Shown one piece after another: positions 302 through 43,471 of a stretch of 64,000 bases of DNA; position 1 is the first letter of the stretch, and every line of letters begins with the position of its first letter. Under the pieces are notes generated by a model. It worked only from the letters and a program-made list of their open reading frames with translations. It ran no database searches and had not been told where the DNA came from. This stretch comes from a virus: the IMG/VR virus record IMGVR_UViG_3300034031_000020, positions 1 through 64,000 of that record; one strand, written 5' to 3'. A program made the position numbers and the translations under genes.

Positions 302-344
302 TCACGCCCGGGGGGTTGCATTCTCACCCCCCGGGCGTTAGGCT
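302..344 (+). promoter_or_regulatory. early promoter P1 with twin 17-bp operator-like sites
   Basis: -35 TTGCAT 316-321, 17-bp spacer, -10 TAGGCT 339-344; sites TCAC-N9-GTTG 302-318 and TCAC-N9-GTTA 324-340. Confidence 0.85.
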
Positions 345-376
345 AGGTACATCACCACCGAGGAACGGAGAACGAC

Positions 377-1666
377 ATGACCGCCGCAGGGAAGACCAAC
401 GCCAGCCGGGTCCAGATCAACGACCGGATCATCGTCAAGGTGACCCAGCTCGCCGCCGACGCCAGTTGCACCGACGCCAGCCGCACCAAGACCGGCGAGG
501 GCGTCCAGATCGCCCGGGTGATCGGCAAGGAGAAGTGCGGCAACCGGCGCGGCTACATGGTCAAGACCTCCGCCGGGACGTTCTACGCCGAGCCGGTCCA
601 GACGATGTGGCTGGCACCCGAGGACGCTGCCGGGGTCAAGCGGGCCCGGGTCGAGGCCGAGGCCGAGGACATCGCCCGGGACGCCGTCAAGGCGACCGCT
701 GGCCGAGTCGAGCGGGACCACGCCGAGGCGGTCGCGATCAACGACGAGATCGACGCCGTCGCGGAGACTCCGGCGGCGACCGCCCCCCGCTACACCGTCC
801 AGATGATCGACCGCCGCAAGGGCCGCGAGTTCGCCTACATCAACGACGCCGTGACCGGCGACGTGGCCAAGACCGCCAGTGGCATGACCGAGGCCGAGGT
901 CCAGGCCATCGCCGACAAGCTGAACGTCGACGCGGAGACCGAGAACGCCGTCCGGACTGGCGCAACCCGGGGATGCTGGACGCCGCTCGACGAGCGGGAG
1001 ACCGAGGCCCAGGTCGCGGCCTGGGAGGGGCGCCACGCCAGGCTCGGCGCCGACACCAGCCGCCAGGCGTACCCGCCCATTGCGTACCGGATGGCCGATG
1101 AGGTCGAGGCCCACGAGGAGAACGCCCGCCGGGACGCGCTGGCCGCGTGGAAGACCAGCGCGACCCGCCTCGTTGCTGGGAAACGACTGTGGGAGGACGC
1201 ACAGGCCGAGGCCCGGCAGTACCAGGACACCGGGTTCGGCCTTCTGGTGGCCACTGAGTGGGCGGCGCGGGGTACCCGGGACGACCGGTACGACGAGGCC
1301 GTCACGGCGGCCAGGGACGCCGTGTGGGTGGCGTGGGAGAACCGGCTCACTACCGCGCTAGCCCAGCACATGCTCGGCGACCCGGCGCCGGTGGTGGATG
1401 AGGTCCTCGCGCGGGCCAGCAACTACCACACGATCAGTCGCGGGGACGTCCTCCTCGGGGCGACCCGGACCGAGGAGGAGCACGTAGCGATGGCGCACAC
1501 CTGGCGGACGAGCCAGGCACCCCTCGCCGCCCGCCCCGCCGACCCCCTCGCCGGGCGGACCGACTCGGAGATGTCCCTCGTGGAGATCCTGGCCCGGGGC
1601 CGGGCCGAGGCCGCCGAGGTCTGCCAGTCCTGCAAGACCGCCGGGTGCGTGGAGTGCACCTGCTAG
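377..1666 (+). CDS. hypothetical early protein, 429 aa, C-terminal CxxC...CxxC
   Basis: SD GGAG upstream, strong codon bias, downstream of P1. Confidence 0.8.
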   Translation: MTAAGKTNASRVQINDRIIVKVTQLAADASCTDASRTKTGEGVQIARVIGKEKCGNRRGYMVKTSAGTFYAEPVQTMWLAPEDAAGVKRARVEAEAEDIARDAVKATAGRVERDHAEAVAINDEIDAVAETPAATAPRYTVQMIDRRKGREFAYINDAVTGDVAKTASGMTEAEVQAIADKLNVDAETENAVRTGATRGCWTPLDERETEAQVAAWEGRHARLGADTSRQAYPPIAYRMADEVEAHEENARRDALAAWKTSATRLVAGKRLWEDAQAEARQYQDTGFGLLVATEWAARGTRDDRYDEAVTAARDAVWVAWENRLTTALAQHMLGDPAPVVDEVLARASNYHTISRGDVLLGATRTEEEHVAMAHTWRTSQAPLAARPADPLAGRTDSEMSLVEILARGRAEAAEVCQSCKTAGCVECTC

Positions 1667-1678
1667 GACCTGAGATTG

Positions 1679-1722
1679 TCACGCCCCGGGGGTTGACGTG
1701 GTCACTCCCGGGGCGTTAGGTT
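1679..1722 (+). promoter_or_regulatory. early promoter P2 with twin operator-like sites
   Basis: TTGACG 1693-1698, 18 bp, TAGGTT 1717-1722; sites 1679-1695 and 1702-1718. Confidence 0.85.
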
Positions 1723-1809
1723 TAGGGCACAACACCACAGCACGTCACCTCGGGGGACCGGCCCGCGACAGCGAGCCGCCGCCCCTGCCGACCGAGGGAG
1801 TCTGCCGAC

Positions 1810-2037
1810 ATGTCCCGTCGCCGTTCGCACAGCCGTACCAGCCGCCACACCGGCCTCGGTCTCGCCGGGTCGCTGTTCCTGCTCCTCCTGGCCGCCGTCG
1901 GCCTCGGGGCCATCGCGCAGACCACGCCGATCCCCGACGGGGTCATCGGGTTCGCGTTCGTCGTCGTGCTCGTCGTCGCCCTGGCGACCGGGTCCGGGTC
2001 CAGCTCCAGCAGCCGCTCCGGCCGACGCCGGTACTGA
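1810..2037 (+). CDS. small two-TM membrane protein
   Basis: SD GGGAG; two hydrophobic helices. Confidence 0.75.
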   Translation: MSRRRSHSRTSRHTGLGLAGSLFLLLLAAVGLGAIAQTTPIPDGVIGFAFVVVLVVALATGSGSSSSSRSGRRRY

Positions 2038-2050
2038 CCGAGGAGAACCG

Positions 2051-2317
2051 ATGCTTGACCAGGAATTCGCCCGGCACACGTGCACCCCCACCGGCAAGGC
2101 CCTGCCGTTCGGTCGCAAGGCCCCGGAGGGTGAGTGCCTGCGCTGTGACCAGCTCCGGGCCGGGGCCGCACCCCGGGAGGCCCCACACGGGATCCGGGAG
2201 CGCAAGGCCGCCGAGGCGGAAGACGCGCGGCGCGCCACCGAAATCTCCGAGCACTTCACGGGCGAGCGCCACCGCTCCGGCGGGTGCGGGCCGGTATGCA
2301 CGTTCGGGGACTGGTAA
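2051..2317 (+). CDS. hypothetical Cys/His-rich protein
   Basis: SD AGGAG; HTC, CLRC and C-terminal CGPVCTFGDW. Confidence 0.8.
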   Translation: MLDQEFARHTCTPTGKALPFGRKAPEGECLRCDQLRAGAAPREAPHGIRERKAAEAEDARRATEISEHFTGERHRSGGCGPVCTFGDW

Positions 2318-2330
2318 CCGCTCAAGATTC

Positions 2331-2373
2331 TAACGCCCCGGGGGTTGCAGGCTCACTCCCGGGGCGTTAGACT
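2331..2373 (+). promoter_or_regulatory. early promoter P3 (leaderless transcript) with twin operator-like sites
   Basis: TTGCAG 2345-2350, 17 bp, TAGACT 2368-2373; ATG 2380 follows after 6 nt. Confidence 0.85.
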
Positions 2374-2379
2374 TCAGGT

Positions 2380-2598
2380 ATGACGAAGACGAGCACCCCC
2401 GCCAAGTTCACCACCGAGTTCGCCGCCGACATGACCGTCCAGTACAAGACGGTCAGCAAGGTCCGGCTCGTCGAGCTGGTCGAGGACTTCGGGCGCTCGC
2501 AGAGCTGGAAGGTCATCCCGCTGACCGGCCCGGCGAAGTTCCGGGGTGTCGAGACGGTCGTCTACCTCCGCACCGACGGCTCCGTCCAGCTCTACTGA
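2380..2598 (+). CDS. hypothetical protein, leaderless
   Basis: ATG at the predicted +1 of P3; codon bias. Confidence 0.8.
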   Translation: MTKTSTPAKFTTEFAADMTVQYKTVSKVRLVELVEDFGRSQSWKVIPLTGPAKFRGVETVVYLRTDGSVQLY

Positions 2599-3033: not shown

Positions 3034-3525
3034 ATGATCACCACAGCTACCCGACACCTGACGGCTTCGATGGTCGTCTTCGATGCCGAGACCATCGACC
3101 ATGCTCCCCGCGTACTGCTGGTACACCACAACGCCACCGGCAAATGGGTGTTCCCCGGCGGACACGTGGACGAGAACGAAAGCCCCCATGAGGCTGCTAT
3201 CCGCGAAGTGCTGGAGGAGACGAAGGTCCAGGCGGCCATCGAGCCTGACCCCGCGCTGCCCGGCCTGAATCAGCATCCCGCGCCGTTCATGGTGGCCGAG
3301 TTCCCGGCACCCGCGAAGCCGGAACGGCCGGGCAAGCCTGCCGAAGTGGCCCACTCGCATATCGACATGCTGTACGTGGGGACAGCGAGGTGCGCGGCCC
3401 TTGAGGCCGCCCTTGACGAGGTATCCGACGTGCGATGGGTACATGCGGCCGACCTCAACGAGCTTGATGTGCGTGCCGAGGTACCAGGCGTGGCCCGTGC
3501 CGCCTGGTACTGGGTGACGCGATAA
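3034..3525 (+). CDS. NUDIX hydrolase
   Basis: Nudix box GGHVDENESPHEAAIREVLEET. Confidence 0.92.
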   Translation: MITTATRHLTASMVVFDAETIDHAPRVLLVHHNATGKWVFPGGHVDENESPHEAAIREVLEETKVQAAIEPDPALPGLNQHPAPFMVAEFPAPAKPERPGKPAEVAHSHIDMLYVGTARCAALEAALDEVSDVRWVHAADLNELDVRAEVPGVARAAWYWVTR

Positions 3526-3547
3526 TTTCGACCAGAGAAGGAGAGCC

Positions 3548-3976
3548 ATGGAACTCCAGGACATCGCCACCGCTCCCAAGTTCGTCCAGCATCAGGCCGC
3601 ACACGCCCTGGCGACGCAGCGCGCCATGAGCGCGCGACTCGGCAAGATCCGGGAGATCGTCATCGGACGGTGGCCTGGCCGGTACGTCGGCGAGGTCCTG
3701 CCGCTCGACGGATCCAATCCGACCGACGACACCATCCCCGCCGGGGACATCTCCAACGACGTGTATGTGGTGGAGGTCCTCGGCAAGGACCCCGACGACC
3801 CCATGTGGACGACGGTCGTTCACGGCGAGTCGGACCGGATGCTGTTCTCCGGCGACGCCGCCCGGTGGACCGCGATCCTCCACGCCATCGCACAGATCCA
3901 CAGCGGGTCGGACAGTCACGCGACCGCCGCGTTCTACGCGGGCCGGGTCCTCGGCCTGCCGGAGACGAAGGACTGA
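3548..3976 (+). CDS. hypothetical protein
   Basis: SD AAGGAG, codon bias. Confidence 0.8.
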   Translation: MELQDIATAPKFVQHQAAHALATQRAMSARLGKIREIVIGRWPGRYVGEVLPLDGSNPTDDTIPAGDISNDVYVVEVLGKDPDDPMWTTVVHGESDRMLFSGDAARWTAILHAIAQIHSGSDSHATAAFYAGRVLGLPETKD

Positions 3977-3980
3977 TTCA

Positions 3981-4023
3981 TCACGCCCCGGGGGTTGCGG
4001 TCTAACCCCCGGGGCGTTAAGCT
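3981..4023 (+). promoter_or_regulatory. early promoter P4 (leaderless) with twin operator-like sites
   Basis: TTGCGG 3995-4000, 17 bp, TAAGCT 4018-4023; ATG 4030. Confidence 0.85.
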
Positions 4024-4029
4024 TCAGGT

Positions 4030-4221
4030 ATGACGCAGACGATGAAGCCCCGGGGATTCTGGAACCTGGCCAACCGCGAGATCCAGATCGACGGCACCTG
4101 GCACCAGCTCGGAAGGTGCTCCCTGATCGGCTCCCGCAACTGGACGATCCGGGACGCCAGCGGCGAGATCCTCGCCCGCTGCTCCGGGAACGCCGAGTTC
4201 CAGATCCGCGAGATCGTCTGA
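4030..4221 (+). CDS. hypothetical protein, leaderless
   Basis: ATG 6 nt after the -10 of P4, same TCAGGT-ATG context as P3. Confidence 0.75.
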   Translation: MTQTMKPRGFWNLANREIQIDGTWHQLGRCSLIGSRNWTIRDASGEILARCSGNAEFQIREIV

Positions 4222-4264
4222 AACCCCCGCCCGCATCCACGACCACCAGGGAGCGACCACGGCC

Positions 4265-4597
4265 ATGTTCTTCGAGAAGCCCGGAAGCGTGAAGATCCTG
4301 TACACCGTCGCCGTGACTGGCGGCATGACGTCGGTCCGAGGGGCCGACATGACGCGGGACGTCGTCCCCGAGGTCGCACAGGTCGAGTTCTGGGCCGACG
4401 ACGACGGCATCTCCTGGACCGTCAGGGTCCAGGGCCACGTCCAGCGCAAGGACGGCACCGCAGGGGCCTCGATCCAGGAACACGAGTTCTCGTCGTTCTG
4501 GCACAGCCACGGCATTACCGCGCCGGAGGCTGTCCTGGCGTTCGTCGAGCGGTTCCAGCCGAGGGCGGTCGCGGCGATTGCCGCCGGGAGGGAGTAG
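4265..4597 (+). CDS. hypothetical protein
   Basis: SD GGGAG, codon bias. Confidence 0.75.
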   Translation: MFFEKPGSVKILYTVAVTGGMTSVRGADMTRDVVPEVAQVEFWADDDGISWTVRVQGHVQRKDGTAGASIQEHEFSSFWHSHGITAPEAVLAFVERFQPRAVAAIAAGRE

Positions 4598-4682
4598 CCC
4601 GGACCGGTAGATCACCCGCGAGAGCTCCGGCCACTGACCCACCTGCCGGGCCCACCCGGCACCCACGATCGAGAGGTACGAC

Positions 4683-5033
4683 ATGACCGCCACCGCAGCA
4701 CGCCGCATGTTCAAGCTCCAGTCCTCCACCACCACCGCGACGTACGCCGTCGACGGCGGGCCCACCACCGAACTACCCGACATGACGCTCGGGAATCTGG
4801 ACTGGGTGACCGGCTCGCTGTTCTTCACCCCGACCGAGGTCGCCGTCTGCGTGAACTGGACGACCGGGCTCACCGTCATCGAACTCACCGGCCCCCGCAC
4901 CCGCGACGAGAAGAGCAGCGGGTGGCACCGAATCACGCTCGGTCACTACGGCGAGGGCCACACCTCCGAGTATCAGATCGTCCGGGACGTCGTCAGCCAG
5001 GTCGTCACCGACCACGCTCCCCGCAAGGTCTGA
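4683..5033 (+). CDS. hypothetical protein
   Basis: SD GAGG, codon bias. Confidence 0.75.
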   Translation: MTATAARRMFKLQSSTTTATYAVDGGPTTELPDMTLGNLDWVTGSLFFTPTEVAVCVNWTTGLTVIELTGPRTRDEKSSGWHRITLGHYGEGHTSEYQIVRDVVSQVVTDHAPRKV

Positions 5034-5109: not shown

Positions 5110-5772
5110 ATGCCTGCCGACACCATCGCCCCACGCTGGCAGCTCACCACGAAGGACATGCTCGCCGCCATGGCCGTTGACCTCCCGGAGGCCGAGCTGG
5201 ACGGGTACCGCATCGAGCGCTTCATCGTCGGCACCGACGTGCGCTCACAGATCGAGCGCTCCAGGCTCGGCGCCAGGGCGCCGCTGCCGGGCACGTACAC
5301 CCGGCTCCGCAGGGGCAACCGGGTGTGGATGTCCGATGTCACCGCCGAGCGGACGGACCACCTGGAGCCGCTGGTTCAGATCGCGGACCGCCGGGCCCGC
5401 CGCGTCGTGATCAACGGCCTCGGCCTCGGGATGGTCGTCAAGGCGGCCCTGGCCTTCGACCACGTCGAACACATCGACGTGGTCGAGGTGAGCCCGATCG
5501 TCGCGAAGCTCGTCGGCCCGACGTACGAGGCCACCGGCCGGGTTCGGGTCCACGTCGCGGACGCGTTCGCACAGATGACCCGCTGGCGCAAGGGGACCCG
5601 GTGGGACGTCGGCTGGTCGGACATCTGGCCGGACCTATGCACGGACAACCTCCCGGCGATGGCCAGGCTGAACCGCTCCTACGGGCACCGCTGCGACTGG
5701 CACGCGTGCTGGAGCCAGCGGGATGTCCGTGCCCACGCCGTGCGGGAGCGGATGCGGAGCGGGTGCTGGTAG
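5110..5772 (+). CDS. class I SAM-dependent methyltransferase (spermidine-synthase-like fold)
   Basis: Motif I VINGLGLGM, acidic VVE at the end of beta2, ADAF, DIW; start taken at the ATG after SD GAGG. Confidence 0.8.
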   Translation: MPADTIAPRWQLTTKDMLAAMAVDLPEAELDGYRIERFIVGTDVRSQIERSRLGARAPLPGTYTRLRRGNRVWMSDVTAERTDHLEPLVQIADRRARRVVINGLGLGMVVKAALAFDHVEHIDVVEVSPIVAKLVGPTYEATGRVRVHVADAFAQMTRWRKGTRWDVGWSDIWPDLCTDNLPAMARLNRSYGHRCDWHACWSQRDVRAHAVRERMRSGCW

Positions 5773-5778
5773 AACTGA

Positions 5779-5821
5779 TCACGCCCCGGGGGTTGCAAGC
5801 TCACCCCCGGGGCGTTATGCT
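5779..5821 (+). promoter_or_regulatory. early promoter P5 with twin operator-like sites
   Basis: TTGCAA 5793-5798, 17 bp, TATGCT 5816-5821. Confidence 0.85.
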
Positions 5822-5855
5822 GTGTACGTAGCCGCCGCAACGGAAGGACACGAGG

Positions 5856-6470
5856 ATGAAGATCACGGACATCAAGACCGGAGTCCGGTACCTCTACGCG
5901 ACAAGCCCCGACTGGATCAAGTACCTCAACGCCTACAACCGGTTTGAGGTCCGGATCGACGACCTGACCCGCTACAGGAAGGCGGGCCTCTACAAGAACT
6001 CGTACCACGAGGACCCGAAAGGCTCGTACCTCAAGGCCCGCCGGATCATCACCCAGGCCGTGGGCGACGGTACCCAGATCGAGCAGGAGGAAATGGACGT
6101 CTTCGTGATGGCCCGGTTCCTTGTCGGCGAGTACGCCGAGTGCAAGCGCCGGGCCGACGAGCACCGTGCGGCGATGACCACCGCACGTAACGAACTGGAG
6201 ACCGCCGCTACCGCTGCTGCCGCCCGAGCCGCGAAGCTCGCCGCGCGAGTGAAGACCCTCGGTCTCGATGGGGCGATCGTCGTCACGGCGGATCGGGGAA
6301 GCGAGTACCTGGGGGAGCGCCCAAAGGTCAAGGTCCGCTTCGGCCGTGACGTCGAATCGGTCCTGGACGATCTCCTGTCCCGCCTGGAGCGGGCGTCAAC
6401 GCGCGACCGTCAGTGCCCGGCGGGTCCCGCGTGCTCCGGAGCCGCCTTCCCGGGTCACCCGGCGCATTGA
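5856..6470 (+). CDS. hypothetical protein
   Basis: SD AAGGA, downstream of P5. Confidence 0.75.
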   Translation: MKITDIKTGVRYLYATSPDWIKYLNAYNRFEVRIDDLTRYRKAGLYKNSYHEDPKGSYLKARRIITQAVGDGTQIEQEEMDVFVMARFLVGEYAECKRRADEHRAAMTTARNELETAATAAAARAAKLAARVKTLGLDGAIVVTADRGSEYLGERPKVKVRFGRDVESVLDDLLSRLERASTRDRQCPAGPACSGAAFPGHPAH

Positions 6471-9093: not shown

Positions 9094-9258
9094 ATGCACG
9101 GATCGGACATCGTCATGTGGTCCAGCATTTTCATGCTGGTCACGATCATCGTAAGCATCATCTTCCACGTCGGAAAGGAAGTGACCCGCCACATCGCCAC
9201 GGCTTGGATCCTGGGCCAAATCGCGATGATCGTCGTCTTCGCCGTCTTCTGGCGATGA
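9094..9258 (+). CDS. small two-TM membrane protein (54 aa, not in ORF track)
   Basis: SD AGGGAG; MHGSDIVMWSSIFMLVTIIVSIIF...IVVFAVFWR. Confidence 0.7.
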   Translation: MHGSDIVMWSSIFMLVTIIVSIIFHVGKEVTRHIATAWILGQIAMIVVFAVFWR

Positions 9259-25581: not shown

Positions 25582-27342
25582 ATGCCCGTCACCCGGCTCC
25601 AGTCCTCGCAGAAACCCGACTTCTGGTGGGCGTTCGGCCACTCCTGGCTGGAGAACCAGCTCGGTAGCCGCAACCAGACGGGCCGCCCCGACGGGATGTT
25701 CCGCGCGGCGAACGACATCGAGTTCAACAACTGGCGCAACTTCGCCGTCACCGGCTCCCGGATCATTCAGCAGGGCGTCGCGCAGGGCGGGTACTCCCGG
25801 CTGTTCCAGTCCGTCCCGAAGGTCTCCTTCGGTGCGCCGTACGTCTCCCAGGACGGCGGCCTGATCCTCTGCTGGGGGATCAACGACATGGGCAAGTCGG
25901 GTCCGGGTGTGACGTACATGAACGCGTTCATCGACGCCCTACGGTCGTGCGTGGTGCGGTGGCGGGCCGGTTCGTTGCGGGAGAACACCGATGCCTCGAT
26001 CGCGTGGGGCGCCGGGTTCGGCCTGTCGTCCGGCAGCGACGAGTGGACCTCCGGCAGCTCGTACCGGACGGCGACCACGACGACGAGCGCCACCTTTACG
26101 ATCACGATCCCCGCCGACTACACCGGGACCCCTATCTCGATCGTCTACAACGGCATCGTCAACGGGGGCACGGTCACGTACTCGGGGACGGCGGGCGTGA
26201 CGGGAACGTTCTCCACGTCGGCGATCATCCCGGCGGGTGAGGTGTCGCACTGCCCCCGCACCCACCGGATCAAAACGTTGACGGCGGCGAACGCCGGTCA
26301 GACGATCATCGGAACCGTCACGCAGATGGACGCGTCCGGCTCCGTCGACTTCGACTGCTACATCATCGAGGCGGAGAACTCACCACCGGTCATCCTCTGC
26401 GACATCGCCCGTTTCAACACCCTGGGGTACAGCGGGTTCCCGCAGCTCTCCGGGAACACCGTCGCGGTGAACGACGCGTCCGTCCAGACGTGGAACACGG
26501 CGATCTACAACCTCGCGGCCGAGTTCGACCCCATGGTCCAGGTCGCCTACTTCGACGCGGCGATCAACAAGGACGCGTCGAAGCTGTGGTCCGTGGACGG
26601 GGTGCACCCGAACGAGAAAGGCTCGGCGGTGCTCGCCGATGCCCTGTTGGACGCGCAGCGCCGGTTCCGCCCGTCGGCGACGACGGTCACGTCCCCGCCG
26701 ACGGGAATCACCGCGTCCATCAACCCGCCGTCACCCCGGGAGGGCGCCCTCGTCCGGCACCACGTCACCGGCCTGAACCGCTGGTACACGGCGGAGTTCT
26801 TCGGCGGGTACGGCACGGCGTACACGCCGGTGGCGGGGGACATGTGGGCGATCCCCGTACAGGTCACCGTCTCCAACGCCCGGGTGAGCATGTTCGGCGT
26901 CGATCAGGTGGCCGCCGGGACCGCGACCGGCACGATCCGTTGGGGCCTGTACGACGACCCCGGCGGCACCGGGTACCCGTTCTCGTTGATGCATGAACTG
27001 ACGGCGTCGTCGGGTGCGTTCACGCTGACGCTGGCCACGGGCATCAAAACCAGTCCCGCGCCGACCGCGTCGGGGAGCATCGACAAGCCTCTCGATCCGG
27101 GGCTGTTCTGGCTGTGCCTGAAAATCATCACCGCCGGTACGGGGATCACCCTGCGGACCCTGCTCGGCCCGAACCTGATCGTCTCCCCCGTCAACCACTC
27201 CACCGGCGCCGCGCTCTCGGCGACCACGTACGGCATGGGGTACAAGCTGACCGGGCAGGGAACCACTGTCCTCCCGGGCCGGTACCCGACCACGGCGACG
27301 CAGTCCGATGCGTGCCCGATGGTCTCGTTCCGGCTGACGTAG
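25582..27342 (+). CDS. SGNH/GDSL hydrolase-domain virion protein
   Basis: Blocks FGHSW, NFAVTGS, WGIND, DGVHPN. Confidence 0.85.
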   Translation: MPVTRLQSSQKPDFWWAFGHSWLENQLGSRNQTGRPDGMFRAANDIEFNNWRNFAVTGSRIIQQGVAQGGYSRLFQSVPKVSFGAPYVSQDGGLILCWGINDMGKSGPGVTYMNAFIDALRSCVVRWRAGSLRENTDASIAWGAGFGLSSGSDEWTSGSSYRTATTTTSATFTITIPADYTGTPISIVYNGIVNGGTVTYSGTAGVTGTFSTSAIIPAGEVSHCPRTHRIKTLTAANAGQTIIGTVTQMDASGSVDFDCYIIEAENSPPVILCDIARFNTLGYSGFPQLSGNTVAVNDASVQTWNTAIYNLAAEFDPMVQVAYFDAAINKDASKLWSVDGVHPNEKGSAVLADALLDAQRRFRPSATTVTSPPTGITASINPPSPREGALVRHHVTGLNRWYTAEFFGGYGTAYTPVAGDMWAIPVQVTVSNARVSMFGVDQVAAGTATGTIRWGLYDDPGGTGYPFSLMHELTASSGAFTLTLATGIKTSPAPTASGSIDKPLDPGLFWLCLKIITAGTGITLRTLLGPNLIVSPVNHSTGAALSATTYGMGYKLTGQGTTVLPGRYPTTATQSDACPMVSFRLT

Positions 27343-27352
27343 GGGGAACCCG

Positions 27353-29044
27353 GTGACGCTCCTGTTGGTGCTGCCCGGCGGCGCCACCTCCACCCCCGCC
27401 ACGGCCACCCCCGCCACCATCGCCCGGACCGTGGCCGTGGCGGGGGCGCCCGCGACCGGCTCGACGGCGGCCCCGGTGACCATCGCGCGCACCGTCGCCG
27501 TCGCCGGTACCGCAGCGACCTCGTCGGCGGCCACGGCCACCCCCGCCACCATCCCCGCGACGACGACCGTCGCCGGGTCCGCGTCCACCTCGGCGGCGGC
27601 CACCGCCAACCCGCCCACCGTGGCGGGCACGACGACCGTCGCGGGCGAGCCGGGCGCCGGTTCCACCGCGTCACCGGCCACCGTCACGCGAACCGTCGTG
27701 ATCGCGGGCACGGCGATGGCGGGCGCCACCGCGACCCCGACGACGGTCGCTCGGACGGTGGCCGTCGCGGGGGTGGCCACAGCGGGATCCACACCGGCCC
27801 CGGCCACGATCACCTCGACGGGAGCCGTCGCCGGGGCAGCGCAGGGCGGGGTCACCGCTGTACCCGCGACCGTCACCGCCGTCACCGCCGTGGCCGGTAC
27901 CGCCGCCACCGCGACGGGCTCGTCCGCGACCCCGCCCACCGTCACCGGGTCGGCGGCGGTGAGCGGCGCGCCCGCGACCGGCGCCACACCCGCTCCCGCG
28001 ACGACGATCACCAACGCGGCCGTGGCCGGTGCCGCCACAGCGGGCACCGCACCCACACCCGCGACCGTCGCCCGCGCCGCCGTGCTCGCGGGCGCGGCGT
28101 CCGCGAGCCGGACCGCCACCCCGGCCACGGTCCCGGGCGTCACCGCCGTCACCGCCACGGCCACGCTGCCCGCCGTCGCCACCCCGGCCACGGTCGCGCG
28201 GGCCGTGGTCGTGGCCGGTGACGCGTCGACGGGCCTCGCGCCGCTCCCACCGACGATCGCGCCCCCGGTCGTCGCGGTGGCCGGGCAGCCCGCCGTGGGT
28301 CACACGGCAACCCCCGTGACCGTCGCCCCGCCAGCGACCGCCGTCGCTGGTACCGCCGTCGCCGCGTCGGGTTCCACGGCCACCCCGGCGACGGTCAGTC
28401 CCGCGACCACGGCGGTCGCGGGATCCCCCGCCGCCGGTTCCGCTCCAGCTCCCGCGACGACCGCCCCGCCCAAGGTGACCGTCGCGGGTGTCGTCGCACT
28501 GTCGCGGACCGCCACCCCCGCCACGGTCGCGCGGACCGTGGCCATCGCGGGTGTCGCGGGCGCTTCACGGACGGCCACCCCCGCCACGGTCGCGGGTTCC
28601 GTCACGGTGGGCGGCATCCAGGCGGCGGGAGTGGCCCCCGCCCCCGTCACCGTCGTCGGCGCGGTGCTCATGGCGGGTGTCGTCCAGGTCGGGTCGACGG
28701 TCACGGCGACCACCGTCACGGCCGTCGCCGTGATCACCGGGCCGACGGTCACCAGCCCGACGACGGTGGTCGTTGCGACGCTGCACGGCGCGGCCGTCAC
28801 GGCGGGTTCGGCGTCCGCGAGCCGTAGCGCCACGGTTCCCGTGCTGACCGTGGCGGGGTTCGCGTGGGTGTCGGCGACCGTGTTCAGCGACGTGATCCCC
28901 CACGTGGATGTGGAGTCCGCGACCCGGTTCGTCGCGGCACTGGACGGCGTGGCCCGCATGACGTCCACCCCCGGCTCGTCGACCAGGTTGACCGCGTCGA
29001 CGGAGAACGTAGGGTCGGCGACCGTCACGGGGGTCGTCGGGTGA
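27353..29044 (+). CDS. Thr/Ala/Val/Pro-rich repeat protein (~21-23 aa period)
   Basis: About 20+ copies of ATPATVARTVAVAG-like units; almost no charged or aromatic residues. Confidence 0.8.
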   Translation: MTLLLVLPGGATSTPATATPATIARTVAVAGAPATGSTAAPVTIARTVAVAGTAATSSAATATPATIPATTTVAGSASTSAAATANPPTVAGTTTVAGEPGAGSTASPATVTRTVVIAGTAMAGATATPTTVARTVAVAGVATAGSTPAPATITSTGAVAGAAQGGVTAVPATVTAVTAVAGTAATATGSSATPPTVTGSAAVSGAPATGATPAPATTITNAAVAGAATAGTAPTPATVARAAVLAGAASASRTATPATVPGVTAVTATATLPAVATPATVARAVVVAGDASTGLAPLPPTIAPPVVAVAGQPAVGHTATPVTVAPPATAVAGTAVAASGSTATPATVSPATTAVAGSPAAGSAPAPATTAPPKVTVAGVVALSRTATPATVARTVAIAGVAGASRTATPATVAGSVTVGGIQAAGVAPAPVTVVGAVLMAGVVQVGSTVTATTVTAVAVITGPTVTSPTTVVVATLHGAAVTAGSASASRSATVPVLTVAGFAWVSATVFSDVIPHVDVESATRFVAALDGVARMTSTPGSSTRLTASTENVGSATVTGVVG

Positions 29045-29376
29045 GCCGCTCCGGCCGGTCGGGGACCGGGAACTCGGCGTACCGCACGAACCGCGCGCAG
29101 TTGCTCGCGCAGACGGACCGATGCGCGCTGTGCGGGCACGGCGGCGCGAAGACGGCCGACCACAAGGTGCCTCACGCGTTGTGGCCGCGCGACGCCCGGG
29201 GCGCGCTGCACCCTGGCTTCGATGACCTGGCGAACCTGCAACCGGCGCACGGCAGCATGGGCGGCCGTCAGCCGCACAACCCGTGCCTGGTGTGCGGGGA
29301 GATGTGCAACCAGAAGCGGGGGGCCCGGGTCCGGCACCGGCCACAGACCCGGGACTGGTTCCCGAACCGCACCTGA
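29041..29376 (+). CDS. HNH endonuclease
   Basis: CALCG..ADHKVP..NLQPAH..CNQKRG. Confidence 0.9.
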   Translation: MSRSGRSGTGNSAYRTNRAQLLAQTDRCALCGHGGAKTADHKVPHALWPRDARGALHPGFDDLANLQPAHGSMGGRQPHNPCLVCGEMCNQKRGARVRHRPQTRDWFPNRT

Positions 29377-30600: not shown

Positions 30601-32496
30601 GTGACGGGGGTGACCCTCAACCTCGTCGACGTGTCCCGCTATCAGGTCGAAGTCGACAACCCGCTCGACCTGGTCAAGGCGAAGACCGCCGGGTACCAGA
30701 TCATCAACGTGGCGCTGACCGGCGGCAAGGGCTACGTCTCCGGTGCGTGGGCCCGGACCTACCTGGAGCAGGCCGCGACCCTCGGGTACGGCCGCATGGT
30801 CTACCACTGGCTCGACGGGCGCAGCACCGGCGCCGCGCAGGCCGCCGCGCAGATCAAACGGATGAAGGACCTCTTCGGGTCCGCGCTGACCGGGTTCGCG
30901 CATCAGGTCGACGTCGAGGAGACCGGCAAGGACGGGATCCCGCCGCCGACATGGGCGCACGTCCGCGAGTACGTCGACGCCGTCCAGCAAGCCCTCGGCC
31001 GACACATGGTCATCTACTCCGGGGACTGGTGGTGGAAACCGAAGGCGTGGCCCGGGGCTACGGTGACCCCGTACCTGATGGCGCAACCCAACACGGGGAA
31101 GCTGACGGCGTACCCCGGCGACACGGCCGCACAGTGGACCGCCGGGTACGGGGGGTGGGACACCCTGGCCATCATGCAGTGGGGTGTCCACGCACTACCC
31201 GGCACCGTCGGCTGTTCCCTCGCCGCGCTCCGTGACCACGGGGTGTGGGCGGACCTGACTGGAGGCGATGCACTGATGCCGCAAGCTGACCCCGGCAACG
31301 CACAGCCGGACGCGTGGATAGGACCTGCCGCGCCCTCGGCGCTGGTCGCCGAGCTCGCCGACGTGGGCCGCGACCTGATGCGCCAGGCCGCCGAAGCCGA
31401 CGAACCCCGGCACCTCGACGACGCAGGGGACCTGGCCCGGTGGGCGGCCACCATCGGTGGCGACGTCGAGCGTGACCCGCTCCGGCTCGACCTGATGCCG
31501 ATGGGCGCCGGTGAGGTGTGCTCCTCCACGATCGTCGCGGAGATGGACGACTGGATCGCCGCCGGGGGGACGAACCTCGGCTGCGTCGGCGACAAGGACC
31601 ACGGCACCGGGTTCCACCGAGGCGCGAACTACATCCCCGCCACCGACTACAGCAGACGGCGGGACCCGAACGGCGCCGACGGCCCGTTCATCAACTGGAA
31701 CGCGTCCTGCGCGGGAGACTTCCGCCACGGCGGGAAAGCCGCCCTGCGGGAAGCGGGCCGCAAGCTGCTCGCCGTGCTCATGGCCGGTGGCTACCCGATG
31801 ATCTGTGAGTTCATCGGCCAGCCGTGGCCCGACCGACCCGTCATGTACTGGGCCAGGTGGGAGGGTGTCAGCAATCTCCGGGAGTACACCGGCTCCGGTC
31901 ACGACGTCTGGTACCACATCTCGTGGTACCGGTCCCGCTCCGATCAACGCCCGTACATGTGGAGGAACAGCATGGCACTCGAAGCCACCGACAAGACCTG
32001 GCTCACCTCGGCCGCGTTCACCAACGCCGTCGCGGCGGCCACCGTTGAGGCGCTGCTCACCCGGAAGATCGACCCGACGAACGACCTCAACCCGAACCGG
32101 ACCTTCCACACGTTCATCCTGGACGTTCAGAACATGCGCGACGCGTGGCGCCACGCCCTCACCGACCCGAAGGTGAAGGGGCGCCCGCTGCCCGGCTCCG
32201 GCTTCGACAAGCTCATGAAGTCGGCGGACACCCTCGCCGCCGGGCTCGCCGCCCTGCGCACCGAGAACAGCGCGGCGGAAGCGGCCACGGCCGCGTTGGT
32301 GCGGGAACTGATCCAGCTCGTCCAGGCCGGAGGCGGTGACGTCGACTCGGCGGCGATCCTCAGCAAGCTTGACACCGTCCAGGCCGAGGTCCGCGCCGCC
32401 GCCACCGAGGCCGGTGACCGGGCCCGGGAGGATGTCCTCGACGCGCTGCGGAGGGGGGCCGAGGCCGAGGCCGCCGCACTTCGCAGCACGGAGTGA
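30601..32496 (+). CDS. endolysin: GH25-like muramidase + Zn-peptidase-like domain + helical C-terminus
   Basis: VDVSRYQ, VYHW, QVDVE, IYSG, MQW (GH25); GDKDH..GFH..AGDF..GHDVWYHIS (M15-like H/D/H). Confidence 0.85.
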   Translation: MTGVTLNLVDVSRYQVEVDNPLDLVKAKTAGYQIINVALTGGKGYVSGAWARTYLEQAATLGYGRMVYHWLDGRSTGAAQAAAQIKRMKDLFGSALTGFAHQVDVEETGKDGIPPPTWAHVREYVDAVQQALGRHMVIYSGDWWWKPKAWPGATVTPYLMAQPNTGKLTAYPGDTAAQWTAGYGGWDTLAIMQWGVHALPGTVGCSLAALRDHGVWADLTGGDALMPQADPGNAQPDAWIGPAAPSALVAELADVGRDLMRQAAEADEPRHLDDAGDLARWAATIGGDVERDPLRLDLMPMGAGEVCSSTIVAEMDDWIAAGGTNLGCVGDKDHGTGFHRGANYIPATDYSRRRDPNGADGPFINWNASCAGDFRHGGKAALREAGRKLLAVLMAGGYPMICEFIGQPWPDRPVMYWARWEGVSNLREYTGSGHDVWYHISWYRSRSDQRPYMWRNSMALEATDKTWLTSAAFTNAVAAATVEALLTRKIDPTNDLNPNRTFHTFILDVQNMRDAWRHALTDPKVKGRPLPGSGFDKLMKSADTLAAGLAALRTENSAAEAATAALVRELIQLVQAGGGDVDSAAILSKLDTVQAEVRAAATEAGDRAREDVLDALRRGAEAEAAALRSTE

Positions 32497-33569
32497 CCGA
32501 CCTGTCGTACGGCTTCGCGGCGCAGGTCTACGTCCTGGCGAACCTGGCCATCGCACTGGGGTACCTGTGCGTCCCCTGGCTCGTCCTGCCGTATATCCAC
32601 CTGCGGCGCCGGACGATAGCCGCCGGGGCCCTGTTCTTCCTCGGGTGCACCGGGTCGCACATCGACATGGTTTACGACGTCCTTGTTGGTCACGACCAAC
32701 ACCCACCCGTGGGGTGGGTGGCCGTGTGGTGGCATGCCCTTCAGGCCGTCGGGACGTGGGCGTTCATCATGCTGTTCCGGGGCGAGTTGAACACGGCGGA
32801 CAGGGTCCTCGACGAGATCCGGGCGAAGACCCCGAAGGTGGAGCAGGACATAGCCGCCCTGCCGCCCGGAGACGTCCGGGACGAACTGGTCGAGACCCTC
32901 GCCGCGCTGCGGGTCACTCACCATCCCGTCGAGCCCCCGGCGGTCGAGGTGCCCGACCCGGCGCTCCAGAAGCTCCCCGGGAAGGGCGAATGGGTCAAGG
33001 CCGCCCCCGGTGTGTTCATGATCTGCGGAACCCTCGTCGTGATCGCGATCCTCGGCGTCTACGCGACCCTCGTCGTGACCGGCTCGCCGACCGATGCGTT
33101 CTTCCGCCTGATCAACCTGTTCCTCAACGCGCTGGGCACGCTGGTGACGATGGCGACCCTGTCCGTCGGCCTTGTGCACGCCCGGCGGACCCTGGAGAAC
33201 CGGCGGATCGCGCTCAAAGGACAGGAGGAGGCTCACCGGGCGGCTGACGCCGCCGAGGCCGCCGCGAGGGGCGTCAACGGGGAGCTTACCGCCCGGATCG
33301 TCAAGGCCGCCGCCGCTGCGGCGAAGGACGCGGCGGCGCAACTCCAGCGCGAACGCGACCAGGCAGCCACCGCCCTGCAACGGTCCAGGGACGAGTCCGC
33401 CGCCGCCGTCACCGCAGCGACGAAACTCCAGACGGAACGGGAGGTCGGTGTCCGCAAGGACTACGAGAAGGATCGGCGCGTGTACGAGACCGACCGGCAG
33501 GGCTACGAAGCGGACCGGCAGACCTACGAGCAGCGGAGACAACCCGGCGAGGACGACACCGGGGGGTGA
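32493..33569 (+). CDS. membrane protein: ETR1-like 3-TM sensor domain fused to a 2-TM lysis/holin-like module and coiled coil
   Basis: ANLAIALGYLCVP / LFFLGCTGSH / HALQAV align with ETR1 SDFFIAIAYFSIP / AFIVLCGATH / KVLTAV; GTGA overlap with the endolysin. Confidence 0.75.
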   Translation: MTDLSYGFAAQVYVLANLAIALGYLCVPWLVLPYIHLRRRTIAAGALFFLGCTGSHIDMVYDVLVGHDQHPPVGWVAVWWHALQAVGTWAFIMLFRGELNTADRVLDEIRAKTPKVEQDIAALPPGDVRDELVETLAALRVTHHPVEPPAVEVPDPALQKLPGKGEWVKAAPGVFMICGTLVVIAILGVYATLVVTGSPTDAFFRLINLFLNALGTLVTMATLSVGLVHARRTLENRRIALKGQEEAHRAADAAEAAARGVNGELTARIVKAAAAAAKDAAAQLQRERDQAATALQRSRDESAAAVTAATKLQTEREVGVRKDYEKDRRVYETDRQGYEADRQTYEQRRQPGEDDTGG

Positions 33570-43126: not shown

Positions 43127-43471
43127 ATGACGTCACCGACGGTCGGCCGTATCCCCGCCGAGATGACGCCCGCTACCGAGCTGGTCGAGGTCGAACCCGC
43201 CGAGACGGTGAAAGAGCACGTGTCGACGCTGCTCTCCAACGTCGCGATCCTGGCGATGGTCGTCGGCCTGACCTGGGGCCTGTGGTCGCACCTCGGCCCG
43301 TGGGCGCTGTGCGCCGGGGGTTTCGCGCTGGCCGTCCTGGTGAGCGTCACCGACTTCGCCCGTCGGCCCCAGCTACTCCCCGAGGCCGAGCCCGCCCCAC
43401 CGCCGAAGGGCCCTCCGGGGCCGACGTCGGCGGGCAACCTCCACACGAAGGGACCGGGTGCTGAGTCATGA
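43127..43471 (+). CDS. small membrane protein upstream of portal
   Basis: Two TM segments; CATGTT -10 6 nt upstream. Confidence 0.7.
   Translation: MTSPTVGRIPAEMTPATELVEVEPAETVKEHVSTLLSNVAILAMVVGLTWGLWSHLGPWALCAGGFALAVLVSVTDFARRPQLLPEAEPAPPPKGPPGPTSAGNLHTKGPGAES

Follow-up and report, generated by a model that had tools for sequence, protein, structure and literature searches.

A Candidate Phage Lysis Protein That Joins an Ethylene Receptor-Like Membrane Domain to a Holin-Like Module

Introduction

P0001 is a 358-amino-acid (aa) protein encoded directly after the endolysin gene in the phage record IMGVR_UViG_3300034031_000020 of IMG/VR. The record has 79,451 bp and is rated 100% complete; its first 64 kb (64,000 nucleotides), the stretch analyzed here, is called the window. 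P0001 is probably a membrane component of the lysis cassette that was fused from two proteins made apart in related phages and that contains a sensor-derived timing domain. Its N-terminal three-transmembrane (3-TM) domain is very probably a real, though remote, homolog of ETR1_N (PF25487), the input domain of ethylene receptors, and its C-terminal module consists of a holin-like transmembrane (TM) hairpin with a long coiled-coil tail.

Holin concentration and membrane energization are thought to set the time at which a holin acts, and we know of no holin with a cofactor-binding sensor domain. With an ethylene-receptor input domain that is fused to a holin-like module and recurs beside endolysins, the idea that lysis is conditioned by a chemical signal can be put to a concrete test.

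Architecture of P0001 and Coupling to the Endolysin Gene

An AlphaFold2 (AF2) model of aa 1–115, built with 37 aligned relatives, has helices at 8–30, 39–65, and 75–112 and a mean predicted local distance difference test (pLDDT) score of 93.4. These helices agree with the three N-terminal TM helices proposed in a preliminary description of this DNA, and the residues named there (N17, Y24, P28, F48, F49, C52-T-G-S-H56, and H81-A-L-Q84-A-V) are all present in the translation. The TM3 helix continues into the cytoplasm to aa ~122 (AF2). In the full-length model (pLDDT 80.6; predicted template-modeling score, pTM, 0.43), a helix at 127–143 and disorder at ~144–163 are followed by helices 164–196 and 200–348, and the second hairpin helix extends ~120 residues beyond the membrane. 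By alignment, the linker (aa 98–163) corresponds to the C-tail of a stand-alone 3-TM protein plus the N-terminal region of a stand-alone 2-TM protein.

The P-T-D-x-F-F-R-L-x-N-L-F-L-N block of the hairpin is invariant or nearly invariant. In the tail, AARGVNGEL spans aa 257–265, its conserved V-N-G-E-L part spans aa 261–265, and 12 relatives all share N262 and G263. Hydropathy, the AF2 models, and the sequence itself agree with the preliminary description on the linker, the two further TM helices, the AARGVNGEL segment, and the coiled coil. Inspection by eye found no convincing start with a ribosome-binding site for the C-terminal module near aa 110–125, and a Pfam scan found no cytoplasmic signaling output (GAF, His-kinase, or GGDEF) in P0001.

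The start codon of the P0001 gene lies within a GTGA sequence that contains the endolysin stop codon (Table 1), and this overlap, which had been noted before and is confirmed in the sequence, is of the kind associated with coupling by termination–reinitiation. The genes 3′ of P0001 are on the opposite strand, and the endolysin and P0001 genes therefore close a rightward operon. A hydrophobicity check of the endolysin detects no TM segment and no hydrophobic or signal-like N-terminus, which indicates that a holin is required for this enzyme to reach the cell wall.

Relatives of P0001 and Origin of the Fusion

Relatives were collected by running HMMER exhaustively over 1.84 billion representatives and by a word-indexed search, and they form three classes: four more full-length fused proteins with 60–66% identity (from JGI, Logan, and NCBI sources), proteins of ~185–227 aa that match aa ~125–300 alone, and proteins of ~100–135 aa that match aa ~5–110 alone. 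Both halves of P0001 occur as separate genes in the IMG/VR contig UViG_3300018954_000002 (L003). In L003, a GH25 endolysin gene (3439–5004) is followed by a 114-aa 3-TM gene that starts at 5001 with a GTGA overlap (5001–5004), and this gene is followed by a 211-aa 2-TM gene (P0009) that starts at 5342 with an ATGA overlap (5342–5345). The halves are separate in L003 yet overlap by 4 nucleotides (nt), and P0001 is thus a natural product of joining, in one frame, two genes chained at the level of translation. The occurrence of the C-terminal module as a separate gene elsewhere also upholds the earlier proposal that the partner of the N-terminal domain in this fusion is a membrane module of holin-like or lysis-accessory type.

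A sequencing or frameshift artifact was considered as the source of the fusion and is ruled out, as the five fused proteins, with 60–66% identity, come from different sources and keep the frame through a variable linker. In a tree of the N-terminal domain, the fused forms fall within one small subclade with stand-alone forms among them; a single origin of the fusion is possible from this topology.

The subfamily also extends to cells. P0055, a 404-aa metagenomic bacterial protein, combines a phage-type 3-TM domain with a diguanylate cyclase domain of the GGDEF type (148 bits) and keeps the F-F-x2-C-x2-T-H and H-x2-Q motifs, and this fusion therefore suggests that the subfamily works as a sensor input in cells as well. 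A homologue search set to longer proteins gave no relative of the phage subfamily that is fused to a kinase. Profile scans of genome contigs found no prophage copy, and a scan with P0055 as query gave GGDEF matches alone. Scans of viral and metagenome sequences added only five loci, and tblastn of P0001, the 3-TM protein of contig L004, P0028, and the endolysin against 50,697 GenBank phages gave no match.

As a separate observation, a group of loci on actinobacterial chromosomes (L092–L098 and L101) scores 20–32 bits on PF25487 in open reading frames (ORFs) of 185–610 aa. Helix 1 of this group reads A-Y-L-[AS]-I-S and helix 2 mostly F-x-[ST]-C-x2-[GH]-H, and the group falls between the phage subfamily and canonical ETR1_N.

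Homology of the N-Terminal Domain to ETR1_N

P0001 has no reportable match in Pfam. When the complete phage was searched in six frames with PF25487, a single match was obtained, at 32520–32768, which scores 13.2 bits and covers profile positions 3–84 of 97. Among the stand-alone relatives scanned, ETR1_N is the first- or second-ranked Pfam family in 9/9, over nearly the full profile; E < 0.01 is reached by 9/41 relatives in the ETR1_N comparison, and the GGDEF-fused P0055 scores only 8.4 bits.

For profile comparison, 25 bona fide ETR1_N domains from cyanobacterial genomes (124–157 bits on PF25487) served as the reference set. Alignment by hhalign of 37 phage-type sequences with these domains gives a probability of 91%, a P value of 1.1e-6, and a score of 40.2, as compared with a maximum of 22.1 for 30 column-shuffled versions and 15.9 for the reversed version. 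The alignment pairs N17 with Asp25, Y24 with Tyr32, V27 with Ile35, P28 with Pro36, F48/F49 with Phe61/Ile62, C52 with Cys65, S55 with Thr68, H56 with His69, and H81 with Lys91. A hidden Markov model (HMM) built from the cyanobacterial domains alone scores 31/40 phage-type proteins above all of ~3,700 decoy ORFs. In the ESM Atlas, the nearest clusters to aa 1–112 are mostly phage proteins of 107–138 aa, 37–64% of which carry PF25487, with scores of 0.90–0.92.

The homology and the residue mapping put forward in the preliminary description are thus borne out by the hhalign alignment with its controls, the Pfam ranking, and the HMM decoy test. A profile search of the PDB and Foldseek searches of the PDB and BFVD gave nothing significant, the Foldseek matches being non-specific helical bundles; a PDB look-up indicates that no solved ETR1_N structure exists for comparison. 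Phage proteins of this type are labeled 'hypothetical' in databases or, automatically, as domain-containing, and full-text literature searches found no paper describing phage ETR1_N proteins.

Conserved and Replaced Residues, Topology, and the Putative Metal Site

Conservation was counted over 40 relatives. Y24 and F48 are present in 40/40; H56, H81, and Thr or Ser at position 55 in 39/40; C52, F49, and Q84 in 38/40; N17 in 37/40; and P28 in 25/40. The Cu(I)-ligand pair of ETR1, Cys65/His69, is retained as C52/H56, and the conservation of this CxxxH motif, named beforehand as a test of the proposal, holds for both the Cys and the His.

Lys91 in helix 3 of ETR1 is a polar bridge to Asp25. Throughout the phage subfamily, Asp25 is replaced by Asn, Ile62 by Phe, and Lys91 by His, so that Asp25 and Lys91 are changed as a pair; the caution about Asn and Phe in the preliminary description therefore applies with greater force than was stated there. 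The I62F change (etr1-4) is said to abolish ethylene binding, as reportedly found by Hall et al. in 1999. Of the positions required for ethylene binding according to Wang et al. (2006), as that work is cited in PMC6944256, namely Tyr32, Ile35, Pro36, and Ile62, the first and third are present as Y24 and P28, V27 is a conservative substitute for Ile35, and Phe49 replaces Ile62.

Among 1,221 ethylene-binding domains, 93.55% have Asp25 and 3.67% have Asn at this position (PMC10266040). The D25N variant of ETR1 retains only residual Cu(I) binding in vitro and has no detectable ethylene binding in yeast; in planta it works, with an ethylene affinity ~100-fold lower (PMC10266040, PMC11971883). That the N-terminal domain binds ethylene with high affinity is unlikely, given these data and the family-wide occurrence of Asn17, Phe49, and His81.

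By helix position, N17, H56, and Q84 lie approximately nine residues from the outer membrane face, H81 lies six, and C52 thirteen. One shared site is therefore conceivable, and Cys52/His56/His81 would form a putative 2His-1Cys set in the model. Net charge summed over the relatives is +72 for loop 1 and +81 for the C-tail as compared with −25 for the N-tail and −43 for loop 2, a positive-inside pattern that indicates an N-out/C-in topology, as in ETR1.

The two predicted external segments are also rich in His, which makes up 8.9% and 10.3% of their residues versus 1.5% and 2.4% in the internal segments, an approximately five-fold enrichment. At least two external His are present in 37/40 relatives, and many N-termini read M-H-H-H or M-H-D-H. 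Loop 2 of P0001 contains G-H-D-Q-H-P, and cyanobacterial ETR1_N domains have P-H-G-H-C-Y ahead of helix 1. The external His could fit metal capture at the outer face, and proton sensing is also conceivable.

Lysis Cassettes in Other Phages

The gene directly 5′ of the 3-TM gene can be compared in five cassettes, since that of L132 is cut at its 5′ end. It encodes a GH25 endolysin in the window and L003, a phrog_3084 endolysin in L134 (E 1e-29), and in L133 an ORF that shares 58% identity with the second domain of the endolysin of L003; in L004 the same slot is occupied by a 320-aa ORF without assignment. Synteny with endolysins among the homologs, which had been suggested as a check, is accordingly found in the window, L003, L133, and L134, where the upstream endolysin is recognizable.

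The 3′ partners are of two kinds. In the window and L003 the partner is a 2-TM coiled-coil protein, fused or separate, and in L004, L132, L133, and L134 it is a ~175-aa 4-TM protein followed by a 1-TM coiled-coil protein (Table 1). The 4-TM partner weakly matches phrog_2272 and the 1-TM coiled-coil partner weakly matches phrog_1397. A predicted complex of the L003 3-TM protein with its 2-TM module scored 0.01, which speaks neither for nor against an interaction.

With a Nostoc ethylene-binding domain as tblastn query, a match was found in the cultured Maribacter phage Molly. Its gp065 (YP_010357114.1, 'hypothetical protein') is 289 aa long, reaches 60.9 bits with PF25487, has Ala-Asn in the helix-1 motif as in the phage family, and bears a C-terminal soluble region of ~165 aa. 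In the Molly cassette (L136, Molly_1, NC_062751.1 36547–38459), gp065 is located directly before gp066, an Amidase_3 endolysin, and after gp064, a 1-TM coiled-coil protein. A cultured phage from a different bacterial phylum therefore likewise pairs an output-less ETR1_N protein with an endolysin. The top BFVD match, A0A8E4UZR7, equals gp065 in length (289 aa) and may be gp065.

Functional Interpretation

A role of P0001 in lysis is likely, and it is most likely the holin-type component of the cassette with a built-in, sensor-derived regulatory or timing domain. Its gene adjoins the endolysin gene, the product has five TM helices and a charged cytoplasmic tail, and the halves, when separate, are in the holin size range. 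P0001 would be made late with the endolysin and build up in the cytoplasmic membrane, where the hairpin and coiled coil may oligomerize, and the resulting depolarization or perforation of the membrane would let the signal-less GH25 endolysin get to the wall. The ETR1_N-like bundle would be the in-built timing or regulatory domain. Its intramembrane site (Cys52, His56, and probably His81, with Asn17, Gln84, and Ser55) could bind a thiophilic metal, most plausibly Cu(I), and the state of the site could be relayed via the TM3 helix, extended into the cytoplasm, to the holin-like module, in parallel with TM3 signaling in ETR1.

The comparisons above show the homology, the conserved metal-ligand positions, the fusion, and the synteny with endolysins, and from them we infer metal binding, hole formation, and any gating by P0001. 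Copper, redox state, or another small ligand might gate lysis, and gating by ethylene is unlikely because of Asn17, Phe49, and His81. A bolder, combined reading seems unlikely to us. In it, the N-terminal domain is a working intramembrane metal center (a 2His-1Cys Cu site of Cys52/His56/His81), P0001 would be the first holin fired by a chemical input such as copper availability, redox or oxygen state, or a small gaseous ligand, and phages from more than one phylum would have taken up the ethylene-receptor sensor fold to time lysis.

Several findings weigh against P0001 as a holin-type protein with a metal-binding sensor domain. The 27-bit gathering threshold of PF25487 is reached neither by P0001 (13.2 bits) nor by its stand-alone relatives (14–20 bits); the Cys52 position is Ser in one relative and Gly in another; and metal binding with Asn17 is not assured, given the residual Cu(I) binding of D25N (PMC10266040). 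Neither half of P0001 matches a holin family in Pfam or PHROGs, the protein, at 358 aa, is far above typical holins in size, and hhalign of the C-terminal module with the mycobacteriophage D29 holin gp11 gives a probability of 0.2%, with no sequence homology. In addition, the partners differ in four cassettes, and the hole may therefore be formed either by the 3-TM domain or by the hairpin.

This last point bears on the possibility that the 3-TM domain is itself a class-I-type holin, with an incidental ETR1_N ancestry and polar residues in the pore, and that the 2-TM part is accessory or antiholin-like. In all five cassettes, the endolysin or endolysin-slot gene is followed by the 3-TM gene, the downstream partners of which are variable; the stand-alone forms have 100–135 aa and basic C-tails; and a weak match to Phage_holin_2 occurs in one relative. 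For rice ERS1/2, cation conduction that does not require Cys65 has been reported (PMC13261662), and a permeabilizing role of the ETR1_N fold is therefore conceivable. However, intramembrane Cys, His, His, Asn, and Gln that are near-invariant over 25–60% identity are rare in holin families, the enrichment of external His suggests metal or proton binding, and no holin family is matched significantly. We consider this explanation doubtful, though it deserves attention before those that follow.

It is improbable that the N-terminal domain is a working receptor for ethylene or another gas whose ligand gates lysis timing. The conserved Cu-ligand positions and the helix-1 Tyr and Pro would suit such a receptor, as would the position of the domain, which precedes an output-like module and has an unbroken TM3 helix (AF2), and the use of the same subfamily ahead of GGDEF in P0055. 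Asn at the Asp25 position is moreover natural in 3.67% of domains, and ETR1 D25N is ethylene-responsive in planta (PMC10266040). Nearly all 40 relatives nevertheless have Asn17, Phe49, and His81 for Asp25, Ile62, and Lys91, D25N binds with ~100-fold reduced affinity and undetectably in yeast (PMC10266040, PMC11971883), a third His may occupy the metal coordination site, and there is no sign of a host living near plants.

Slightly harder still to sustain is the view that the ETR1_N resemblance reflects convergence or chance among three-helix membrane proteins and that P0001 is an unclassified lysis membrane protein. The sub-threshold Pfam scores would allow this, as would the Foldseek result, which consists of non-specific helical bundles only, with no solved ETR1_N structure to compare. 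Against this stand the hhalign P value with its clean shuffled and reversed controls, the full-length Pfam ranking of the nine stand-alone relatives, the independent HMM, which places 31/40 members above all decoys, and the concurring ESM features; the conserved positions are, in addition, those functionally essential in ETR1.

A membrane protein unrelated to lysis at the late operon end (for superinfection exclusion, copper handling, or host takeover) might explain the large size of P0001 and the soluble C-terminal domain of the Molly homolog, but is very improbable: its gene and that of the endolysin share 4 nt both here and in L003, the endolysin-adjacent position recurs in unrelated phages, and the endolysin lacks an export signal, with no second candidate for a holin nearby.

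P0001 and its relatives contribute three features: the in-frame fusion of the 3-TM domain to its downstream lysis partner, the sub-threshold actinophage subfamily with its Asn / His / Gln / Phe-Phe signature, and the external-histidine pattern. A sizeable ETR1_N subfamily, now annotated 'hypothetical', lies just under the Pfam threshold. The ETR1_N receptor domain has resisted structure determination (PMC12643061), and the output-less phage proteins of 100–135 aa could be tractable models of the receptor-domain metal site.

Genomic Context and Feature Coordinates

The large terminase of the phage has ~25% identity to those of Arthrobacter, Gordonia, and Rhodococcus phages, which points to an uncultured, distant actinophage-like virus. 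The preliminary description had suggested a soil or plant-associated host; beyond this distant terminase relationship, nothing supports that suggestion. A gene map based on GC content at third codon positions (GC3) revealed no second membrane protein near the endolysin in this phage. Two small predicted membrane proteins, each with two hydrophobic segments, are encoded far from the lysis cassette, at 9094–9258 (+; 54 aa) and 43127–43471 (+; 114 aa).

Upstream of the cassette, the region 25582–29044 (+) contains two long ORFs (586 and 563 aa) that have an extreme content of Ala, Thr, Pro, and Val, with T-A-T-P-A-T-V-like repeat units, and that probably encode fiber-like proteins; several further frames there, as well as the opposite strand, are open too, a high-GC artifact. 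An HNH-endonuclease-like ORF with C-x2-C...H-x3-H motifs (28864–29376, +) lies between the Ala/Thr-rich fiber-like gene and the endolysin gene. The order fiber-like, HNH-like, and endolysin is also found in the related phage L003 (HNH-like gene at ~2496–2967).

Table 1. Features of the lysis region of the window and partner genes of the 3-TM gene in related cassettes.
Sequence	Feature	Coordinates	Strand	Basis
Window	Fusion gene P0001, 358 aa: ETR1_N-like 3-TM domain, cytoplasmic linker, 2-TM hairpin, long coiled-coil tail	32493..33569	+	
Window	ETR1_N-like domain, aa 1–112; TM helices 8–30, 39–65, and 75–~97; predicted N-out/C-in	32493..32828	+	PF25487, hhalign, AF2, charge pattern
Window	Codons of C52-T-G-S-H56, aligned to the ETR1 Cu(I) ligands Cys65/His69 (and Thr68)	32646..32660	+	hhalign alignment, conservation
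Window	Cytoplasmic linker, aa 98–163	32784..32981	+	Alignment, L003 gene junction, AF2 model
Window	Holin-like TM hairpin, helices aa 164–196 and 200–228, short external GSPTD turn	32982..33176	+	Hydropathy, AF2, invariant columns
Window	Cytoplasmic tail, aa 229–348, single unbroken predicted helix of coiled-coil type	33177..33536	+	AF2 helix 200–348
Window	Endolysin, 631 aa; GH25 muramidase domain, aa 9–148	30601..32496	+	PF01183, 45.9 bits; phrog_291 'endolysin'
Window	GTGA: GTG start of the fusion gene (32493–32495) over TGA stop of the endolysin gene (32494–32496)	32493..32496	+	Sequence
L004	Alternative partners	5267–6276		
L133	Alternative partners	1338–2464		
L134	Alternative partners	3860–4923		
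L132	Alternative partners	324–1255		

Comparison with Known Systems

The C-terminal module belongs to no Pfam or PHROG family and has weak neighbors in the ESM Atlas; its closest likeness in architecture is to gp11 of mycobacteriophage D29, which has two TM helices, an N-in/C-in topology, and a coiled-coil tail required for oligomerization and lysis timing (PMC9671378). The two share the N-in/C-in TM hairpin and the long cytoplasmic coiled-coil tail (PMC9671378), and gp11, like P0001, is encoded beside an endolysin in an actinobacterial-type phage. They differ in that the tail of the C-terminal module is longer (~120 aa versus 81) and in that the module has a cytoplasmic N-terminal region of ~45 aa, ahead of which P0001 has a whole sensor-type domain.

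The stand-alone 3-TM relatives resemble class I holins of the lambda S105 type in their size (100–135 aa), N-out/C-in topology, and basic C-tails, and in the position of their genes beside the endolysin gene. Unlike class I holins, they match no family and have conserved intramembrane Cys, His, His, Asn, and Gln, and no dual-start motif was seen in them.

Maribacter phage Molly gp065 is similarly a phage ETR1_N protein that has no signaling domain, carries Asn at the Asp25 position, and is encoded next to an endolysin gene and a TM coiled-coil protein gene. In contrast to P0001, it lies above the Pfam threshold, keeps Ile at the Ile62 position, and has the soluble C-terminal region in place of the TM hairpin; its gene is upstream rather than downstream of the endolysin gene, the endolysin is of the Amidase_3 type, and the host belongs to the Bacteroidota.

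With the ETR1_N domains of ETR1/ERS1 (Arabidopsis) and SynEtr1 (Synechocystis), the phage family shares three TM helices in N-out/C-in orientation, a Tyr-x3-Pro motif in helix 1, Phe-x3-Cys-x2-Thr/Ser-His in helix 2 at the Cu(I)-ligand positions, and a helix-3 polar residue three positions ahead of a conserved Ala. TM3 is prolonged into the cytoplasm in both groups, and both have His/Cys-rich external N-terminal segments. The phage family differs in having Asn for Asp25, His for Lys91, Gln for Thr94, and Phe for Ile62, and in scoring below the Pfam cut-off. Whereas the output of ethylene receptors is a GAF, kinase, or GGDEF domain, P0001 has a TM hairpin and a coiled coil, and is encoded in a lysis cassette.

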